NCBI GenBank assembly: GCA_965601925.1
Contig: OZ271854.1
Span: 3,392,001 to 3,456,000, forward strand
Length of the DNA stretch: 64,000 nt
Reading direction: 5' to 3'
DNA from: Alkalispirochaeta sp.
GTDB taxonomy: Bacteria; Spirochaetota; Spirochaetia; DSM-27196; Alkalispirochaetaceae
Shown: one piece after another, positions 40,190-51,419 of the stretch
How the letters are laid out: each line of letters starts with the position of its first letter
How positions within the stretch are numbered: the stretch's first letter is position 1
The notes under the pieces: generated by a model
The model's database searches: none
Told to the model about the DNA's origin: nothing
Seen by the model: the letters and a program-made list of their open reading frames with translations, nothing else
Program-made: the position numbers and the translations under genes

Positions 40190-41872
40190 TTACCCCACGA
40201 TGGCCGCGAGGTCGTCCTCGACGGTGGTCGTTACCGCGAGATCGAAGGTCTCCACCAACACTTTCGCGACCCCCGGGCTGAGAAACGCCGGCAACGTCGG
40301 GCCGATCCGTACACCCTTGAACCCGAGGGCGAGGAGGGCGAGAAGCACCGCCACGGCCTTCTGTTCGTACCACGCGATGTCGAACTCGATGGGAAGATCA
40401 TTGATATCTCCCACCTCGAAGATCTCTTTTAGCTTGAGGGCAATGACCGCCAAGGAGTAGCTATCGTTGCATTGCCCCGCATCCAGAACCCGCGGAATGC
40501 CGCCTATGTCACCGAGATCGAGTTTGTTGTAGCGATACTTGGCACACCCGGCCGTAAGGATGACCGCGTCTGCCGGAAGTGCTCGAGCCATATCGGTGAA
40601 GTAGCTTCTCCCCTTCTGGCGTCCGTCGCATCCGGCCATCACGACGAACTTTTTGATCGCACCCGACTTGACCGCGTCGACTACCGTATCGGCGAGGGCT
40701 GTAACCTGGGCGTGGGCGAATCCGCCGGTAATGGTGCCGGATTCCAACTCCGTGGGCGGTGGGCAACGCTTCGCAAGCTCGATGATCTCCGAGAAGTCTT
40801 TGCGCGACTCCGGCGCTCCGTCCCGATCGGGAATGTGCGTGATACCCGGGAAGGCGACCGCTCCCGTGGTGAAGATACGCTCCTTGTACGCGTCCTTCGG
40901 GGGAACGAGGCAGTTGGTCGTCATGAGAATCGGTCCGTTGAACGACGCGAACTCCTTGTCCTGGAGCCACCACGAGTTACCGTAGTTGCCGACAAAGTGA
41001 GAGTACTTCTTGAACACCGGATAGTAGTGCGCCGGAAGCATCTCGCCGTGGGTGTACACATCGACACCGCTGTCTGCGGTCTGCTCCAGTAGCTCATGCA
41101 GATCTTTGAGATCGTGTCCCGAAATAAGGATACCCGGGCGCGTCCCGACGCCGATATTGACCTGCGTAATCTCAGGGTTCCCGTAGGTCTCCGTGTTGGC
41201 GCGGTCCAAGAGTGCCATGACGGTGACTGCCGCGTTTCCCGTATCGAGGACGAGTTGCGTGAGCTCCTCGGCCGTCCCGGCGGTGACCGTTCCCGCGAGG
41301 ATTCGTATCACTTCGCGGTAGAGGGCGGAATCCTCGTACCCCAGGACCGCCGCGTGGTCTCCGTACGCCGCGATTCCCTTCACTCCGTAGATTGTGAGCT
41401 CCCGCAGCGCCCGAGCATCTTCATCGACCTCGGCGAGGATGGACGCCTCGGGAATCATGGCGTATAGCGCCGCTATATCACCCTCCGCGGCGCTCCACTT
41501 CACCGTACGGGGCAGATCGATCGTGGGCGCATGGCGTTGAATCGTCGCCGCAACGTCCCCTTTGAGTCGGAGTGTGAGCCCTATCATGTGCGCGAGACGC
41601 GCATCGTCGAAGGTGGCGTTGGTGATGGTTGCAAAGAGGGTGTGAAAAATCGTCCGGCCGCTCTCGACAACGGTCGCCTCAAAATCGACCGCTTTTTTGG
41701 TGTCGTCCGCAATGCTGCGATCGAGAGTCTCTACCGCCAGGGCGAGACCGCGGACCGCGTATACCAGAACGTCCTGAAGATTGGCCGTCGATTCCTCTTT
41801 GCCGCACACACCGCGCACCGTACACCCGATATTGCCCGCCGCCTCCTGGCATTGAAAACAGAACATGCTCAT
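40190..41872 (-). CDS. hcp: Hybrid cluster protein (hydroxylamine/NO reductase), class I spacing
   Basis: C-X2-C-X8-C-X5-C N-terminus; SGHD, HGEM, TNC, AGCDG, AGCAK, GQCND, WYEQKA; AGGAGG RBS. Confidence 0.97.
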
Positions 41873-41920: not shown

Positions 41921-41962
41921 ATTCTCCCGCACTCCCATAGCCGTGTAATTGACCCCGGTCAA
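41921..41962 (-). promoter_or_regulatory. FNR/DNR-type class II promoter of hcp
   Basis: TTGAC-CCCG-GTCAA at 41949-41962; candidate -10 GAGAAT (minus strand, 41926-41921) puts the box at about -41.5. Confidence 0.75.
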
Positions 41963-42543
41963 TTCGGTGATGTTTTATCGCATTCCCTTTGAGACCAGGC
42001 CGAACTGACCTCCGCCCCGGTCAGTTCGTTGTTGCTTTGCCGCGCTCCCTATGAGAACAGGCCGAATTGACCTCTGCCCCGGTCAATTCGTTGGCGTTTT
42101 CTCGCATTCCCTTTGAGACCAGGCCGAACTGACCTCCGCCCCGGTCAGTTCGTTGTTGCTTTGCCGCGCTCCCTATGAGAACAGGCCGAATTGACCTCCG
42201 CCCCCGGTCGATTCGTTGGTGCTTTGCCGCGCTCCCTATGAGAACAAGCCGAATTGACCTCCCCCCCGGTCAATTCAGTGGTGCTTTGCCGCGCTCCCTA
42301 TGAGAACAAGCCGAATTGACCTCCCCCCCGGTCAATTCAGTGGTGCTTTGCCGCGCTCCCTATGAGAACAAGCCGAATTGACCTCCGCCCCCGGTCAATT
42401 CAGTGGTGCTTTGCCGCGCTCCCTATGAGAACAAGCCGAATTGACCTCCGCCCCGGTCAATTCGTTAGTGCTTTCCTACATTCCCTCTAAGAATGGGCCG
42501 AATTGACCTCTGCCTCCGGTCAATTCGGTGATGTTTTCTCGCA
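41947..42543. repeat. Non-coding tandem array, 62-63 bp period: nine hairpin palindromes GAA(T/C)TGACC-N8/9-GGTC(A/G)(A/G)TTC plus one short-loop terminal copy
   Basis: Left arms start at 42001, 42063, 42125, 42187, 42250, 42312, 42374, 42437, 42499; linkers are homologous to each other; no ORF annotated between 41914 and 42527. Confidence 0.97.
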
Positions 42544-42604: not shown

Positions 42605-43471
42605 CTACTCCGGCAGCCTCGTGTCGTTCGCGAACTCGTCGAGGTGCCCGCCGCAGCGGATCGCAATTCGTAGTTCCTCGTGGAGTCGGTCCAGGCGGTG
42701 TAATTTCCGCGCCATCTCCACCTCCGCGTCGTTTCGCCGAATGACGTCGGTGACGCCGCCACGGGACAGGACGATTCTTCTTGAGGCGGAGAGCGCCAGG
42801 GACGGGTCGTGGGTGACGACCAGTACGATCTTGTCGGCCCCGCTCAAGAACGCAATCGCCTCGTGACGGTTGATTCCGGCGTTCTCGATCTCGTCTATGA
42901 GGACGATCGGCGAGACCGAGAGGAGGGCCGTGTCGGCTATCATAAGAGAGCGGGACTGCCCGCCGCTCAGTTCGGTGAGCTCGCGATCGGCGTCGATGGG
43001 CTCCCCGGTCAAGCGGTTGGCCGCCTCGATCACTTCGCAGACGACCGACTCGTCCACCTCGATGCCGCGGCTCTCTCCGTGAAGCTCCAAAAACTCGCGT
43101 ACCGTCGCGTCCATGACGAAGTTCATGTTCTGCGAAAGCTGCGCGACCAACCGTCCGCCGCCGGCGTAGCGACGCGACAGATCGGGCTCCTCTCCGTTGA
43201 TGCGTATCGAGCGTCCCGTGGGCGTATCTCCCTGGGCGAGCCACTCGATGTCCGCGAGGAGACGGCTTTTGCCGCTGCCGGTGGAGCCGACGATACACAC
43301 CACCTCCCCGGAAGAGATCGTCAACTCCTCGTACGTCTCCGCCGCGCCGGACTTGTCGTGTCCCGGCAGGATCGTCACGGTCTCGACCTCATGCTCGTTA
43401 TGAAGTGTCTCCGATTCGCCGGTGAGTGCCGCGATCGCTTCCGCGACCGACACGTCGTTCGTCGTTTTCAT
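42605..43471 (-). CDS. ABC-type ATPase with no adjacent permease
   Basis: GSTGSGKS, LSQNMNF, LSGGQ, VLIDE, VTHD. Confidence 0.92.
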   Translation of the reverse strand: MKTTNDVSVAEAIAALTGESETLHNEHEVETVTILPGHDKSGAAETYEELTISSGEVVCIVGSTGSGKSRLLADIEWLAQGDTPTGRSIRINGEEPDLSRRYAGGGRLVAQLSQNMNFVMDATVREFLELHGESRGIEVDESVVCEVIEAANRLTGEPIDADRELTELSGGQSRSLMIADTALLSVSPIVLIDEIENAGINRHEAIAFLSGADKIVLVVTHDPSLALSASRRIVLSRGGVTDVIRRNDAEVEMARKLHRLDRLHEELRIAIRCGGHLDEFANDTRLPE

Positions 43472-44175
43472 GAATGGTAATCTCCCGAGGTGAGCTCGAT
43501 TGTCGTCACGTTGCCGATCTGGTGAGCCGATCCGATTCGCTCTTCTCCCAAACAGTAGCTACACACGGCGCTCGGCATGGGATAGCGCAGGCGCGACCCG
43601 GTCACGCCCGCCTGCTCCGGCGCCTCGTCACGCAACAGTCGCGCCAACTCGAACGCTCCCTGGCCGGTAAGGCCGTTGATCGGAAGAATGCGAGAGCGCG
43701 GATTGGCGGAGTGAACCCGGGAAGCGAAGACTTCGCGCTCCGCTTGGCTCACTACGTCGCCTTTGGTTACTACCACGACGTCGGCGGTACGGAGCATGGG
43801 GCCGACCTTACGCGGCGTGTTTATACCACTTAAGTTGTCGATGACCGCCACGGCGTAGACGTCGCGAATGTGGGGCGAACAGCGGTTGCAGAGCCCGGCG
43901 GACTCGGTGAAGAGGATCGAGAAGTCGTGGCGATCTCCCCACGCAAAGGTCCGCTCGATGTTACTGGCAAAGTAGTGGTCCGGGCAGATCGATCCGGATA
44001 GACCCTTCTGGACCGGAATGCCGGCCCGCTCGTACCGTTCGTCGTCGTCGGTGACCAAGCAGTCGAACTTGACTACACCGGTGGCGATCTCCATTCTCCG
44101 GAGCTCTTGAATCGTTTTGAGGATGACCGAGGTCTTGCCGCACGATGGAGGGCCGGCGATCGTAACGAGCTTCAT
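43468..44175 (-). CDS. UreG/HypB/CobW-like (G3E) GTPase, Cys-rich
   Basis: GPPSCGKT, ICPDH, ESAGLCNRCSP, TKGD, CSYC; ATGA coupling on both sides. Confidence 0.88.
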   Translation of the reverse strand: MKLVTIAGPPSCGKTSVILKTIQELRRMEIATGVVKFDCLVTDDDERYERAGIPVQKGLSGSICPDHYFASNIERTFAWGDRHDFSILFTESAGLCNRCSPHIRDVYAVAVIDNLSGINTPRKVGPMLRTADVVVVTKGDVVSQAEREVFASRVHSANPRSRILPINGLTGQGAFELARLLRDEAPEQAGVTGSRLRYPMPSAVCSYCLGEERIGSAHQIGNVTTIELTSGDYHS

Positions 44176-45425
44176 GATATCTTCGCTCCTCGGTGCGGCA
44201 TGCGTCCGCCGGCGTCGGTGCGGTCGGCGACGAGGCGCGAAAAGGCGGCGGTCGTCCGCTCCAAGGTTCGCGGTAGTTCGTCGGACAACAGGAGGTCCCA
44301 GCCCGGCCACTGGAGCGGATGCGCCTCGGCGTCGAAATCGTCGTTTGCAGGGTGCGTGGAAGGAAAGAGTCCGAGACGCGTCAGGACGCGGCTCATCGAC
44401 TCACCGGCGATAACGTCGATGAGGGGCTGAATTTCCGGCCTGTCGGCTCGAGTAACCAGGAGAACCGGCGCCGTCAAGGCTCCGTCTTCGGGCCACACGG
44501 CGATCAACGGACTATCTTCGGTGATGGTCCGGGTAAAGAAGTAGGGCATGATGGTGATCGCCGGACGTTCGACGTCGTTCGTCGAGGCGGGACGGGCCGA
44601 GGAGATCATCTGGGCGGGGTGCATGGACTGAAACATATTACGGGCGAGTCTCTCGATACCTTCGGTCCCGAACGTGCGCTCGACACCGATAAGGAGTGAG
44701 TCGAAGAGGTCGAAGTCGCCGATCGGCAGCGCAAGGCTATTCTCGTACTCCGGCGAGAGGATCTCGGCCCAACTCTGCGGTACCGGCCTGTCTCCCAGAA
44801 GGTCGAGATTTACCATGAAGACTGCGGGAACCACCGAGATTACCGAAAAGGCTTTGTGCGGATCCGCCAATGAGTTGACCGTGCCGAGCGTGTTGAGCCG
44901 GGGCCACCCCGTGCGGTCTGCAAAGGCGCCGGAGTCTCTCAGCGAGCGAAAGCGCCGGTCGGTGAAGAACAGCCGGAACCCGGCGGAGAGAAAGATGTCC
45001 GGCAGATCGTCCACCGTCGGTTCCGACGAGATGTGCTCCTCCAGCCACTCCGTACCGGTGTATGCTGCTTGGAGGTTGCACGTCACCGCACTTCCCGTCC
45101 GTTCGCTGAACTGTGCTACGGCGCTCTCTAAGACGTTGGTCATCGGAATACGGATAGGGCATGGAACGAGGCCCGCAATCGTCACCGGGCGCGAGGCGCC
45201 GCTACCCCGTGCACCGTGTTTCGCCGCCCCGCGGAGTCGTAACAGGAGATCGGACGGCTCCAGCCCCACGGCTATCGCCGCCGAACGGACGGTGACGGCG
45301 ACGCCGAACCGCTCGAGCACGTCGCTATCCGTTATGCGCCGAAATCCCGCGTCGGCCAAAACGGGGATCGTCTGCGGAAATGCGCCGGTCACTTCGTATA
45401 TGGTGCTCGTCTCTTGTATCTTCAT
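44172..45425 (-). CDS. DUF1858-like domain fused to an ABC substrate-binding fold; no signal peptide
   Basis: N-terminal TIYEVTGAFPQTIPVLADAGF...AVGLEPSDLL; GLVPCPIRIP, PQSWAEILSPEY, VWPEDGA. Confidence 0.8.
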   Translation of the reverse strand: MKIQETSTIYEVTGAFPQTIPVLADAGFRRITDSDVLERFGVAVTVRSAAIAVGLEPSDLLLRLRGAAKHGARGSGASRPVTIAGLVPCPIRIPMTNVLESAVAQFSERTGSAVTCNLQAAYTGTEWLEEHISSEPTVDDLPDIFLSAGFRLFFTDRRFRSLRDSGAFADRTGWPRLNTLGTVNSLADPHKAFSVISVVPAVFMVNLDLLGDRPVPQSWAEILSPEYENSLALPIGDFDLFDSLLIGVERTFGTEGIERLARNMFQSMHPAQMISSARPASTNDVERPAITIMPYFFTRTITEDSPLIAVWPEDGALTAPVLLVTRADRPEIQPLIDVIAGESMSRVLTRLGLFPSTHPANDDFDAEAHPLQWPGWDLLLSDELPRTLERTTAAFSRLVADRTDAGGRMPHRGAKIS

Positions 45426-45431
45426 GGTGTT

Positions 45432-45473
45432 ACGATACGGAGCGAAAGACGATATGTAATTGACCGGGATCAA
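45432..45473 (-). promoter_or_regulatory. Second FNR/DNR-type box and candidate -10 for the SBP-GTPase-ATPase operon
   Basis: TTGAC-CGGG-ATCAA at 45460-45473, preceded by TGTAA as in the hcp box; minus-strand TATCGT at 45437-45432 with identical spacing. Confidence 0.75.
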
Positions 45474-45475
45474 GT

Positions 45476-46099
45476 ATGAACGATTTTTTTTCCGACCTGA
45501 GCGAGCGATCCATCGCCAAGCTGGAGGCAGCTCAGATAACGCGCACCGTCCCCGCCGGGGCGATGATTTTCCTCGAAGACGAGGAAGGGACGCAAATATT
45601 TCGCCTCTTGTCCGGTTCGATTCGGCTGTTTCGCACCGCGCCCGACGGTCGCGAGGTCACGATACACATGGTCCGACCCGGTGAACTCTTTGCCGAGATC
45701 GTCCTCTTCGAGCGTGATACCTATCCGGTCAGCTCGGTGACCGTTGAGGAATCGGTCGTGGCGATCATCCAGCGCAGGAGGGTACTGGCCCTCTTGGGCG
45801 ACGCGGCGTTTCGCGAGGAGTTCCTGCGTAACATCGTCGGTAAGATGCGCTTTCTCTCTCAACAGTTGTACATTTTGGCAACAATGGATGTCCGGCGTCG
45901 GTTGATTCGCTTTTTAGAGGTTCGCTACGGTCGAAAAGGTGCGATCGAGAGCGAGCTCTCCAAGCGTGACACCGCCGCAGCCATCTCCGTGCGTCCCGAG
46001 ACCCTCTCACGCACCCTCGCCGCCTTGAGCGACGAGGGGCTTTTGGAGTGGAAGGGCCGTCGGATTACCGTCGACGCCGCGGCGTGGAACGAGGTGTAG
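45476..46099 (+). CDS. Crp/Fnr family regulator (HcpR/DNR-like, no cysteines)
   Basis: cNMP-type domain GELFAE; recognition helix RPETLSR (ExxSR, FNR-type). Confidence 0.92.
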   Translation: MNDFFSDLSERSIAKLEAAQITRTVPAGAMIFLEDEEGTQIFRLLSGSIRLFRTAPDGREVTIHMVRPGELFAEIVLFERDTYPVSSVTVEESVVAIIQRRRVLALLGDAAFREEFLRNIVGKMRFLSQQLYILATMDVRRRLIRFLEVRYGRKGAIESELSKRDTAAAISVRPETLSRTLAALSDEGLLEWKGRRITVDAAAWNEV

Positions 46100-46227: not shown

Positions 46228-47673
46228 TCAGCGTATGATCTCGCGCCAATCGAACCATTGACGCTCCGTATGGTTGTCCGACATCTGGTTGGCCACCGCG
46301 AGGCGATACCGCGGATCCTCCCAGGGGCTGCGCAGATTAAGGGGGGCGGCGCCGGCGGCCCCGTAGACCAACAGTTCGTTCTCGTCGAGGAAGACGATCT
46401 CTTCGCGGTAGTCGCCGACGAAGTCGAGGGCGTGGGCGTAGACGCGCATATCCTCGTGATGACGATCGACGACGTCCTCGTAGTAATTATCACGTATCTG
46501 AATACGAACACCGGCGACAACATCGTAGAGGCGTCCGTACTTTGAAGAAAAGACCTCGTCGATTCGGCGGTCACCGTCCCAGTCCATCGTGTACCCGTCG
46601 GTGACCTCCCGGTCGTGACGTAGGAGCTCTTCACCGGTGGCCGACAAAATTACCGCAAAGACGTCGTCGTCGTTGACGGGCCAGTGCACCAGTGTTTCGA
46701 ACCCCTCGCTATGCGGCGCAAACTCACCCACCGCTATCAGCTTGGCGTCTTCGTGCAACCCGGGCGACGACCATATCGGCGCGAGCGTAGCACCGTCCAG
46801 CATGGCGACGTGGAGGTGCTCGTAGGAGATCGCCACCTCGATGCCCTCGTGATCCGGGAGGAAATCGCCGGCGATCGCCTTATCGAGATGGTCGTAGTAT
46901 GGATCTTCGGCGCGCCACTCCTCGGGCGTCATGCGCATGGTTCGTTCACCCTCGGCGCTGTGCATGTACTTCGTCAGAAGCTCGTCGCGCCCGTCGCCGT
47001 CGCGATCGTAGGCCCACGGGTAGTGGGCGTATATCATCTCGCTGTCGTCGCCGTCTGTAGACCAGAGTAGATCGAGCCCGGCGTCGAAAACAAAGATGTC
47101 GCCCCGGCTGTTGCGCTCCTCGACTACGACCAACTCGGACGGGGTTCCGTCTCCGGCAAGGTCGGCTACGATCGTCTTCATACGTAGCGCCCGGTTTCGG
47201 TGATCGCTCTCGGGGTTGGCAATCGGCAGTGGGGCGACGGCCTCGATCGTACCCGTCGCTCCGTCGATCACGCGCATCTCCATCGTGCCCGACGCGGTCG
47301 CAAATGCGCCGGCGACCTCGGACATACCGTCGGAGTCGAGATCCCAGATGACATACTTATAGAAGTAGCGGTTTGAAGGGTGCGGCAGATCAAGCCCGCT
47401 CTCGTAGGTCCATAACAACTCAACCGTCTCGCCGTCGAAGGCGAAGGCTTGCATACGCGTTGAGTTAACGTGACGGACGAAATCGCGCGAATCACCGTCG
47501 TTATTCAGATCGCCGAAGTGTGCCGACGAACCGCGAAAATAGGCGTCTTCACTCGCGTATTCGCTGAGGTCGATGCTCAATTTGAGCTCCGGTTGTGGTA
47601 AGGAACTCGCCTGAGCAGCGAGGTGGCTCGTTGCCGCGATGAGCACCGAAAGTACCATTGCACACGTCTTCAT
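46228..47673 (-). CDS. Secreted FG-GAP-like repeat (Ca-binding beta-propeller) protein, distantly rhamnogalacturonan-lyase-like
   Basis: Signal peptide; GDLNNDG, WDLDSDGMSE, YDRDGDGRDE, MDWDGDRRIDE, DFVGDYREE; AAGGAGG RBS. Confidence 0.7.
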   Translation of the reverse strand: MKTCAMVLSVLIAATSHLAAQASSLPQPELKLSIDLSEYASEDAYFRGSSAHFGDLNNDGDSRDFVRHVNSTRMQAFAFDGETVELLWTYESGLDLPHPSNRYFYKYVIWDLDSDGMSEVAGAFATASGTMEMRVIDGATGTIEAVAPLPIANPESDHRNRALRMKTIVADLAGDGTPSELVVVEERNSRGDIFVFDAGLDLLWSTDGDDSEMIYAHYPWAYDRDGDGRDELLTKYMHSAEGERTMRMTPEEWRAEDPYYDHLDKAIAGDFLPDHEGIEVAISYEHLHVAMLDGATLAPIWSSPGLHEDAKLIAVGEFAPHSEGFETLVHWPVNDDDVFAVILSATGEELLRHDREVTDGYTMDWDGDRRIDEVFSSKYGRLYDVVAGVRIQIRDNYYEDVVDRHHEDMRVYAHALDFVGDYREEIVFLDENELLVYGAAGAAPLNLRSPWEDPRYRLAVANQMSDNHTERQWFDWREIIR

Positions 47674-47965
47674 ATCCGCCTCCTTGTTCGTATTACCCAT
47701 TTTCATGGCGGATCAGTGAGACGTGAACCTGCAAAACGTTGAGAAAAGGTATCATTTCTTGATCTTTTCGCCGTTCCAACCCGACCTGCGGCGCAACGAA
47801 GGGCAAAACGTCGGCGCCCTCGGTCATCGAGGCGGTGCGTGTGGATGCAGCATGAGGTCCGTGGCGTCCACCGACTCCTCATAATCGCGACCGGTGCGAC
47901 GCGTCACGGTGCGTCGGAGCGGTACACGTCGCACCTCCGACATTCGGTGCTCTGAGTACGCGCTT

Positions 47966-49777: not shown

Positions 49778-49928
49778 CTTTTACTTTACTCGTTATAGAT
49801 GCGTCTCGCACGATAACTGTACACCCAATGTGCGGTGTAGGTACATCACTGCTCCGACGACAGTGCCGGTCGCGTCCGTTCGTGGGACGGGGGAGACGCA
49901 GGCGAAATGGTCGTGGCATAGTACACGA

Positions 49929-51419
49929 ATGGACAGCATTGGGGACGTACCGGAGGTACCGTTGGGCGAGCGCCTTGCGACGAAACGGATCGCTACGGGG
50001 CTGTGGCAAGTCGCCGGAGGGCACGGACCGATCGAGGTGAAGTCCGCCGTCGCGGCGATGGTCTCGCTCCACGACGCGGGATTCACCTCCTTCGATATGG
50101 CGGACCACTACGGTCCGGCGGAGGAGATCGCCGGTGCGTTTCGGGAGACGATGCGCGCCCGTGGTACGGCGTCGGGGCAGTTTTTCACCAAATGGGTACC
50201 GGAGCCCGGTTCGATCGACGCCGCGGCCGTCCGAAGGGCCGTCGAACGCTCGTGCACGAGGTTGGGCACCGATCGTATCGATCTTCTCCAGTTCCACTGG
50301 TGGGACTATCTGGAGCCCGGGTACATCTCCGCGATGGAGTCTCTCGCGGCGCTCAGGGAAGAAGGGCTCATCGGTGAACTCGGCCTCACGAATTTCGATA
50401 CCGCTCACGCCCGCATTCTCCTCTCGCTGGGACTCCCGATCGTCTCGAATCAGGTTCACTTCTCGCTCTTGGACGACCGCGCCGCGGGCAGCATGAGCGC
50501 GCTGTGCGCCGCGACGGGTATGAAACTTCTCTGTTACGGCACGGTGGCCGGCGGGTTCCTTTCCGAGCGCTGGTTGGGTAAAGCGGAACCCACGCACGCC
50601 GATTTGGCCGGTAATTGGAGTCTCATGAAGTACTACCGATTCATCCGCGTAATCGGGGGCTGGGAACTTTTCCAAGGGCTCTTGCGCGTACTGGATGGTA
50701 TCGCGCGTAAGCACCGCGTCGGTATCAGTAACGTGGCGACCAGGTGGGTCCTTGACCATTCCGCGGTCGCCGCCGTACTAATCGGCGCTCGGCTGGGAAA
50801 GTCGGAGCACATCGCCGACAATCTCCGCCTCTTCTCGTTCGCTCTCGACGCCGAAGATCGGGAGGCGATTCATGAAGTGCGCGCCCGGATCGCTCCGATT
50901 CCCGGAGACTGCGGCGACGAGTATCGCAAACCGCCCATTCTGACCGCCTCCGGAGACCTGTCGGACCACAAGACGCGTCGGTGGCGTATTCCCATCATCG
51001 AACGCGGGGACGCCGCAGACGATATCCGCGCGACCTACGGCTCCGGCACGACGTGGGAGGAGATGGCCTCCTATAGCCGCGCGGTGCGACACGGGCGGCG
51101 CATCGAGGTGAGCGGTACTACCGCGACGCTCTTTGACCGCGTCATCCCCCCGGGGGACGCCGCCGCGCAGGCTGAGGTGTGCATCGACAAGATCGAGGCC
51201 GCTTTGGAGGCTCTGGGCGGCAGGTTGGAGGATGTGGTGCGTACCCGCGTCTACGTACCCGCCGTGAAGGACGATTGGGAAGCCGTTGCACGGGTGCACG
51301 GCCGTCGGTTCGCCGGTATCAATCCGGTCAACACCCTCGTCGGCGCGCGATTGGTAGGGGACGAGTACCGCGTCGAGATCGAAGCGGAGGCGATCGTTCC
51401 CGATTCGGAATCGACGTGA
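49929..51419 (+). CDS. Aldo/keto reductase fused to a C-terminal Rid/YjgF domain
   Basis: GLWQ, FDMADHYG, DLLQFHWW; WEEMASYSRAVR, VSGTT, DVVRTRVY, VEIEAEA. Confidence 0.88.
   Translation: MDSIGDVPEVPLGERLATKRIATGLWQVAGGHGPIEVKSAVAAMVSLHDAGFTSFDMADHYGPAEEIAGAFRETMRARGTASGQFFTKWVPEPGSIDAAAVRRAVERSCTRLGTDRIDLLQFHWWDYLEPGYISAMESLAALREEGLIGELGLTNFDTAHARILLSLGLPIVSNQVHFSLLDDRAAGSMSALCAATGMKLLCYGTVAGGFLSERWLGKAEPTHADLAGNWSLMKYYRFIRVIGGWELFQGLLRVLDGIARKHRVGISNVATRWVLDHSAVAAVLIGARLGKSEHIADNLRLFSFALDAEDREAIHEVRARIAPIPGDCGDEYRKPPILTASGDLSDHKTRRWRIPIIERGDAADDIRATYGSGTTWEEMASYSRAVRHGRRIEVSGTTATLFDRVIPPGDAAAQAEVCIDKIEAALEALGGRLEDVVRTRVYVPAVKDDWEAVARVHGRRFAGINPVNTLVGARLVGDEYRVEIEAEAIVPDSEST

Follow-up and report, generated by a model that had tools for sequence, protein, structure and literature searches.

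The described systems closest to the one analysed here are the metallochaperones HypB-HypA and UreG-UreE/F/D, driven by nucleoside triphosphatases (NTPases), and SufBCD and SmsCB, in which an ATP-binding cassette (ABC) ATPase handles iron-sulfur (Fe-S) clusters without a membrane, the use that we propose for the ATPase described below. To our knowledge, how Fe-S enzymes are rebuilt after nitric oxide (NO) in strict anaerobes, and how the hybrid cluster of the hybrid cluster protein (HCP) is made, are open questions. Here we analyse a 64,000-nucleotide stretch of an Alkalispirochaeta sp. genome (contig OZ271854.1; hereafter the window), which holds, close to hcp, an operon of three genes encoding a protein of substrate-binding-protein (SBP) fold, a G3E-family GTPase and an ABC ATPase (hereafter the trio). 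The trio is real and conserved and is not a transporter. With moderate confidence we read it as a soluble, GTP/ATP-driven machine that loads or repairs Fe-S clusters and here serves the response to nitrosative stress, which makes it a small soluble candidate for both questions, in genetically workable anaerobes. The host genome is a single contig of 5.05 Mb, the nearest named relatives of which are Alkalispirochaeta isolates and metagenome-assembled genomes (MAGs).

With HypB-HypA and UreG-UreE/F/D the trio shares the G3E fold, a CPDH motif that aligns with the CPH motif of UreG and an optional HypA-like zinc-ribbon partner. It differs from them in a GTPase that scores below both family cut-offs and has two CxxC motifs that add four invariant cysteines, in a fixed, often fused ABC ATPase and an SBP-fold partner, and in the absence of hydrogenase and urease from the genomes tested. 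As for SufBCD and SmsCB, a sister branch of the family (clade II, below) shares with them a link to a cysteine desulfurase and an Rrf2 regulator; in the trio, however, the partner of the ATPase is a GTPase, the D-loop differs, no SufB/SufD-like gene was found among the recurrent neighbours, and the role in cluster handling is a proposed one. The RIC proteins (YtfE/DnrN/ScdA) have an N-terminal domain related to that of the trio SBP, which lacks their hemerythrin di-iron domain, has an SBP fold in the remainder and is accompanied by two NTPases. In PMC1274295, RIC genes belong to the same HcpR/NsrR nitrosative-stress regulons as the one predicted for the trio. We considered and rejected the trio as a replacement for RIC/YtfE: ScdA_N was found in 16 of 66 trio genomes, versus 4 of 66 hcp genomes without the trio. 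With the cluster-D importers (PotABCD, FbpABC, AfuABC) the trio has in common the SBP fold and the ABC ATPase motifs, but it has no permease or signal peptide, its SBP carries an N-terminal DUF1858, and the ferric tyrosine clamp appears mostly lost in what is a weak alignment. The literature that we searched, from which subscription journals were largely absent, holds no characterisation of this operon and nothing on GTPase-assisted HCP maturation, and searches by locus tag returned nothing functional. The module is thus uncharacterised in the sources searched and resembles the NTPase-driven metallochaperones in kind.

Composition and conservation of the trio

All three genes lie on the minus strand. 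The SBP-fold gene (44172-45425, 417 amino acids (aa), Pfam DUF1858 and SBP_bac_6) is followed by the GTPase gene (43468-44175, 235 aa, Pfam PF02492) and the ABC ATPase gene (42605-43471, 288 aa, Pfam ABC_tran), the open reading frames overlapping by ATGA at 44172-44175 and 43468-43471. From 445 confirmed genome matches we surveyed the best 80, which come from Spirochaetota, Bacillota, Fusobacteriota, Bacteroidota, Deferribacterota and candidate phyla. In 78 of these 80 loci the SBP gene lies 5' of the GTPase gene, and in 76 the ATPase gene lies 3' of it, the misses being contig ends; the order SBP-GTPase-ATPase is therefore kept in every locus long enough to show it. Among 92 longer GTPase homologues, 86 are natural GTPase-ATPase fusions, including those of Clostridium beijerinckii and C. 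saccharoperbutylacetonicum isolates, and the GTPase is thus the constant partner of the ATPase; such a natural single chain also suits biochemistry. Three apparent SBP-GTPase fusions (P0186, P0188 and P0192) resemble frameshift or deletion artefacts and were left uncounted. A prediction of the three-chain complex with the SBP as partner scored 0.24 against a mark of 0.32, which weighs neither for nor against membership of the SBP.

A membrane partner was looked for beside the trio. In the window, the flanking genes are hcp and a Crp/Fnr-family regulator gene, neither of which encodes a permease, and no cognate permease gene lies within the window. Of 55 loci with enough flanking DNA, only 5 have a same-strand gene for a multi-pass membrane protein next to the trio, these belonging to five unrelated clusters, in a survey confined to the immediate neighbours. 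By a heuristic of hydrophobicity and lipobox, used instead of SignalP, 73 of 75 SBPs have no export signal, and all 6 lipoprotein controls scored high; the two flagged reading frames had been called from upstream starts. The same heuristic flagged none of 11 sister-clade SBPs. Judged by sequence, the trio is thus soluble.

Residues 3-60 of the SBP form the DUF1858 domain (34.1 bits, cut-off 32.2), which also gave a hit (E 0.001) to the N-terminal domain of ScdA/RIC, a protein of Fe-S repair. The remainder has a type II SBP fold (model pLDDT 90) of cluster D, resembling AfuA, FbpA and P5PA at 7-16% identity. Cys89, in a PCP motif, is present in 75/75 aligned sequences, and His269 and Met273 are also invariant. 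We aligned the SBP with the FutA-like protein of the same genome, the clamp ligands of which we take to be at their usual positions. In this weak alignment (probability 34-72%), Y295 corresponds to one clamp tyrosine, F296 and F241 replace two others, and Cys89 falls on the tyrosine of the first ligand loop.

The GTPase (PF02492, 40.5 bits, cut-off 20.7) carries the motifs GPPSCGKT, ESAG, TKGD and CPDH and belongs to the G3E family. It falls well below the cut-offs for HypB (TIGR00073, 52.4 versus 121.2) and UreG (TIGR00101, 28.1 versus 204.2). C39, C64, H67, C96, C99, C205 and C208 are invariant, and the cysteines of CPDH, CNRC and CSYC are kept in 80/80 aligned sequences; the six invariant cysteines and one histidine are compatible with a role as Fe-S scaffold or carrier. 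Its model (pLDDT 73.5) has a SIMIBI fold with best matches to UreG (Z 18.3) and HypB (Z 16.3), CPDH aligning with the CPH of UreG. The low-confidence segments are the three cysteine loops, as would be expected if a cofactor orders them. In a quick, unrooted tree, the family stands apart from UreG, CobW and MeaB-like rows, and the clade of the window (hereafter the HcpR clade; support 94) and clade II (support 100) each occupy one side of a branch; given very long outgroup branches, this tree is not reliably rootable and we claim no order of events. Nickel delivery to hydrogenase, urease or carbon monoxide dehydrogenase (CODH) was rejected for the five trio genomes tested, the window's own included: [NiFe]-hydrogenase (PF00374) was found in 0/5, with the control positive in 4, urease in 0/5 and CODH in 1/5.

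In the ATPase we found Walker A, Q-loop, LSGGQ, Walker B and H-switch. The D-loop is atypical across the family, reading DEIENAGID in 65 of 68 aligned sequences, the window copy being among the 3 with Asn for Asp. Most relatives carry an N-terminal DUF1858-like domain (probability 95%), most of which is missing from the window ATPase.

Recurrent neighbours in the 80 loci are an 80-aa zinc-ribbon gene (41/80), hcp (20/80) and Crp/Fnr and Rrf2 regulator genes; no cysteine desulfurase was found among those of the HcpR-clade trio. The zinc-ribbon protein, encoded 3' of the ATPase gene (L046:11722-11964 and 40 other loci), starts with MH[DE]GC and has CxxC, CPxC and TPC motifs. It matches HypA weakly and has no solved relative beyond generic zinc fingers; its gene was not found in the window's own genome. 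It is also missing from the Fusobacterium loci, where the ATPases are short as in the window's genome. A plasmid collection yielded a single chromosome record, and another lead, znpA in Fusobacterium, proved irrelevant to the trio.

Much of this had been anticipated by the original prediction, made from the window alone. It described three ATGA-coupled genes, an SBP starting with a DUF1858-like domain and lacking a signal peptide, and a GTPase carrying CPDH, CNRC and CSYC, all of which the coordinates, Pfam, the export heuristic and the alignments bear out. Its view of a soluble system, not a transporter, with no permease in or beside the operon, is upheld by the gene order, the fusions, the missing export signals and the lack of any permease conserved with the homologues. 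Its ATPase with intact motifs stands except for the D-loop. Its single complex of three proteins stands for the GTPase and ATPase, by gene fusion, while a place for the SBP in it stays conjectural.

HcpR-type boxes and co-occurrence with hcp

The hcp gene (40190-41872, minus strand, 560 aa; TIGR01703, 704 bits, cut-off 361) lies 730 bp downstream of the ATPase gene on the same strand. Divergent from the trio is a Crp/Fnr-family gene (45476-46099, plus strand; Pfam cNMP_binding and HTH_Crp_2), predicted to encode HcpR, the product of which has no cysteines and the homologues of which adjoin hcp in related spirochaetes; it falls within the coordinates given in the original prediction. Two palindromes of the type TTGAC-N4-GTCAA are predicted HcpR boxes: TTGACCGGGATCAA at 45460-45473, 35 nt 5' of the SBP start and 2 nt 5' of the regulator start, and TTGACCCCGGTCAA at 41949-41962, 77 nt 5' of the hcp start. 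The number of such palindromes alone is not above chance (3 matches with at most one mismatch, versus 3.5 expected); their position and conservation are. Genome-wide there are 16 generic matches, and the extended form occurs only in the boxes at hcp and the SBP gene. Both fit HcpR profile 2 in Table S1 of Rodionov 2005 (PMC1274295).

Boxes like that on the SBP side recur in L001, L002, L004, L048 and L061, and of 6 related spirochaete genomes, 5 have a box like the window's 5' of hcp and one has a box of GTAAC type there. Among the 71 loci with enough upstream DNA, 49 have one of three published HcpR-type boxes 5' of the SBP gene, versus 7 of the 840 windows taken 5' of other genes in these loci; the third (C. 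thermocellum-type) was added after being noticed in the data, the first two alone giving 39/71. Where hcp is distant, it has the same box type as the trio in G252, G269, G275 and G292; at the distant hcp of G277, neither of the two box types scanned was found. In F. nucleatum, a radical SAM gene, which we take to be FN0127, is divergent from the trio. The HcpR site listed for the Fe-S oxidoreductase FN0127 in Table S1 (PMC1274295) thus probably belongs to the trio. Together, these results predict that the trio is part of the HcpR regulon, with the box type found at hcp.

Other palindromes were also seen. GGTA-N6-TACC lies 5' of the SBP gene in L012, L033, L036 and L039 (5/71 loci versus 2/840 in the background); an Rrf2 gene is found directly 5' of the trio in L012, L033 and L039, and the palindrome is a candidate Rrf2 operator. 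In Proteiniclasticum (L007, L015, L019 and L046), GTATC-N4-GATAC lies 5' of the SBP gene, with a Crp/Fnr gene adjoining and 0/840 in the background, and likely reflects an altered HcpR specificity.

We then counted hcp in trio genomes. In 20 of the 80 loci it lies no more than 10 kb from the trio; of 48 further trio genomes, 42 carry it elsewhere, the six misses all being MAGs, which makes 62 of the 68 genomes tested; of the 60 loci without adjacent hcp, 12 (11 short contigs and L057) are not in this count. In even samples, a strong GTPase match was accompanied by hcp in 14 of 15 spirochaete genomes (base rate 76/251), and the GTPase family by hcp in 22 of 22 Clostridia genomes (base rate 150/300; G392 not included). 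In Bacteroidota, hcp was found in 13 of 13 genomes with a GTPase match, for which there is no base rate. In all these counts, kin are not independent. The claim in the original prediction that the trio shares an FNR-type box with hcp and is co-regulated with it is therefore supported, as a predicted co-regulation through conserved boxes of HcpR type, and the lack of co-occurrence with hcp that would have spoken against it was not seen.

Sister clades, proposed mechanism and alternatives

More distant GTPases keep the same core. CPDH, CxRC and CxxC are present in all 28 GTPases of L098-L125, and an ATPase gene adjoins in every locus long enough to show it. Clade II has the order ATPase-GTPase-Fe-S protein in 38/38 full-length metagenome loci, with a NifS/IscS-type cysteine desulfurase in 21 of these and, at times, CysK, CysD or an Rrf2 regulator. 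None of 82 clade II loci has an SBP, zinc-ribbon or hcp gene, and no hcp was found in the two clade II spirochaetes. The clade II Fe-S protein (e.g. L099:8871-9521) is of 220 aa, with an N-terminal PF04060 and an unannotated C-terminal domain containing the conserved motifs SCGCPxTH and CMxQxRH. Other sister loci lie beside NifH/NifD/NifK-like genes (L102, L116, L117, L119 and L124) or paired ThiC-type radical SAM genes (L111). The Clostridia loci L116 (2681-8172), L117, L119 and L124 are uncharacterised nitrogenase-like NifH/NifD/NifK operons with FecCD-type importers, linked to the module. In L124, the trio is of the HcpR clade and lies 5' of the nitrogenase-like operon, both hcp genes being far off. 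The module is also found within TonB/FecCD importer operons of Chlorobia-like and several clostridial genomes (L106, L109, L113-L115 and L245-L254), with no HcpR box. These have their own ABC ATPase and lipoprotein SBP beside the module's signal-less SBP, and often a methyltransferase or DUF364; of all contexts this one comes nearest to the conserved permease that the original prediction named as a refutation, but the permease of these operons already has partners of its own.

In methanogens, genes for an ATPase, for a GTPase that binds Ni and for a COG2000 Fe-S protein adjoin coenzyme M genes, with a role stated to be unknown in PMC12068725 (Fig. 2). As described there, their composition is that of clade II, without SBP or hcp link. 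Methanobacteriota clusters in the Atlas score 0.99 against the window GTPase, and together with that description make homology to clade II probable. The family would then probably include these unexplained genes beside coenzyme M synthesis, and it includes those beside nitrogenase-like enzymes. The analysis also corrects current labels (spermidine/putrescine transporter, urease accessory protein) for thousands of proteins, the GTPase alone making up 6338 clusters.

We chose cluster loading or repair as our reading because these contexts share the Fe-S and sulfur-requiring enzymes of anaerobes, and the operon, the fusion, the conserved ligands, the solubility by sequence and the predicted co-regulation support it. 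In such a machine, the SBP would capture iron, sulfur or a released iron-thiolate species through its invariant cleft cysteine, and the GTPase would hold the metal or cluster on its own invariant cysteines. Of its motifs, CPDH takes the place that the CPH dimer site has in UreG, CNRC immediately follows the G3 motif and would thus likely be GTP-gated, and CSYC sits in a tail that has little order in the model, which contains no metal. The ABC ATPase would drive release to the client, as SufC acts without a membrane. The GTPase-ATPase pair would be the fixed core, the third partner (the SBP, or the Fe-S protein and cysteine desulfurase) and the client varying by clade. HCP, together with which the module is predicted to be induced under nitrosative stress, is a likely client in this clade but does not need the machine in most organisms. 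That the SBP belongs to the complex, what the cargo is, which way it is passed on and to which client are what we infer. More tentatively, and as the less likely case, anaerobic bacteria and methanogens may have an ancient system of their own for assembling and delivering Fe-S clusters, so far unrecognised and apart from ISC, SUF, NIF, MIS and SMS, with the pair as its core. In one clade its sulfur would come from a desulfurase, in another a repurposed cytoplasmic binding protein would supply iron or iron-nitrosyl, and the system would have come into the service of HCP, nitrogenase-like reductases and coenzyme M synthesis.

Several results weigh against our main reading, cluster loading or repair. 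No member of the GTPase family was found in 62 of 76 hcp-positive spirochaetes and 128 of 150 hcp-positive Clostridia, the family being present in 14 and 22 of them, respectively, and it is missing from the genomes whose HCPs most resemble that of the window (G183, G148 and G093). Conversely, G125, which is 99% complete, has the trio but neither hcp nor a box, and 22 of the 71 loci have no box of the three published types. The cysteine motifs of the GTPase could bind Zn or Ni. Since the SBP keeps only one ferric-clamp tyrosine, in the weak alignment above, plain Fe(III) binding is not supported. The TonB/FecCD operons point to imported metal chelates, not repair, and the genes to which clade II is linked (desulfurase, CysK, CysD and probably the coenzyme M genes) fit sulfur transfer equally well.

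The last two of these points each lead to a close rival, which may overlap with cluster loading or repair. HCP has a persulfide ligand, and the conserved cysteines could carry persulfide or sulfide, with the NTPases delivering sulfur instead of metal and the HCP ligand as client in this clade. We hold this to be rather unlikely. The desulfurase in 21/38 clade II loci, at times with CysK, CysD or Rrf2, speaks for it, as do the ATPase, Ni-binding GTPase and COG2000 genes beside coenzyme M genes (PMC12068725), provided that these are indeed clade II homologues; the HcpR clade, however, has no adjoining desulfurase, the paired CxxC motifs and UreG-like CPH site suit metal binding, and other clades sit in metal-chelate importers. 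That last setting fits instead a station at which the SBP binds a chelate or tetrapyrrole (Fe, Ni, Co, haem or corrinoid) and the NTPases strip off the metal and hand it on, salvaging iron under NO, to which we assign the same low probability. Sister loci within TonB/FecCD operons that have a separate ATPase and lipoprotein SBP, often with a methyltransferase or DUF364, speak for such a station, as does the HypA-like zinc-ribbon gene 3' of the ATPase in 41/80 loci, but the HcpR clade has no conserved adjoining importer, clade II has no SBP, and most of the trio genomes tested are without the classic nickel enzymes.

Three further explanations are weaker than these two. The original prediction had proposed HCP cofactor assembly, and a dedicated maturase required for the hybrid cluster would be analogous to CooC and CooT for the related CODH. 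The adjacent hcp in 20/80 loci, the shared boxes and the presence of hcp in 62/68 trio genomes are as such a maturase would have it. Most hcp genomes lack the trio, however, and it is therefore not an obligatory HCP maturase; G125 and L124, described above, tell against it too, and so does the GTPase-ATPase pair adjoining other Fe-S enzymes in sister clades. We therefore abandon assembly of HCP as an obligatory role, consider a dedicated maturase very unlikely, and conclude that the trio is an accessory of the HcpR response, not required for HCP. The other role named in the original prediction, nitrosative Fe-S repair, would fit. Less likely still is a sensing or regulatory module, in which the SBP and the cysteines of the GTPase would respond to NO or iron and adjust the activity of HcpR, Rrf2 or HCP: SBP folds do serve as cytoplasmic sensors elsewhere and Crp/Fnr or Rrf2 genes directly adjoin the trio in many loci, but the trio has no DNA-binding or kinase domain, the regulator family varies while the trio is fixed, and two NTPases would be costly. 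Finally, an orphan ABC importer with its permease elsewhere, as implied by the database label spermidine/putrescine, has very little to recommend it beyond the cluster-D fold, the ABC ATPase motifs and the FecCD permeases beside some sister loci, given 73/75 SBPs without export signal, an ATPase that is found fused to a cytoplasmic GTPase, FecCD operons that carry their own ATPase and lipoprotein SBP, and a clade II without SBP.

Repeat array and neighbouring genes

Between the ATPase stop and the hcp box lies a tandem array (41953-42527) of 9.2 copies of a 62-bp unit, missed in the original prediction. Each unit contains a hairpin of 10-11 bp made of HcpR half-sites at a spacing too wide for a box (z -6.3). 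The array starts at the HcpR box of hcp, and two units carry a paired change on both arms of the hairpin. It is single-copy in the genome and absent from all other loci examined, and a variant shorter by 186 bp (three units) was seen in sequencing run X3. A scan for sigma-70 promoters found none, and Rfam gave only a sub-threshold match on the array. The array may make the transcript more stable or end it, or it may titrate HcpR.

Adjoining the regulator gene, on the minus strand at 46228-47706, is a gene for a predicted secreted FG-GAP/rhamnogalacturonan lyase family 11-like protein, for which no link to the module was seen. Further on, at 49830-51419 on the plus strand, an apparent fusion of an aldo-keto reductase with a RidA-like C-terminal domain was read from the sequence, followed on its 3' side by a PAS/HTH regulator gene and then a stand-alone RidA gene.

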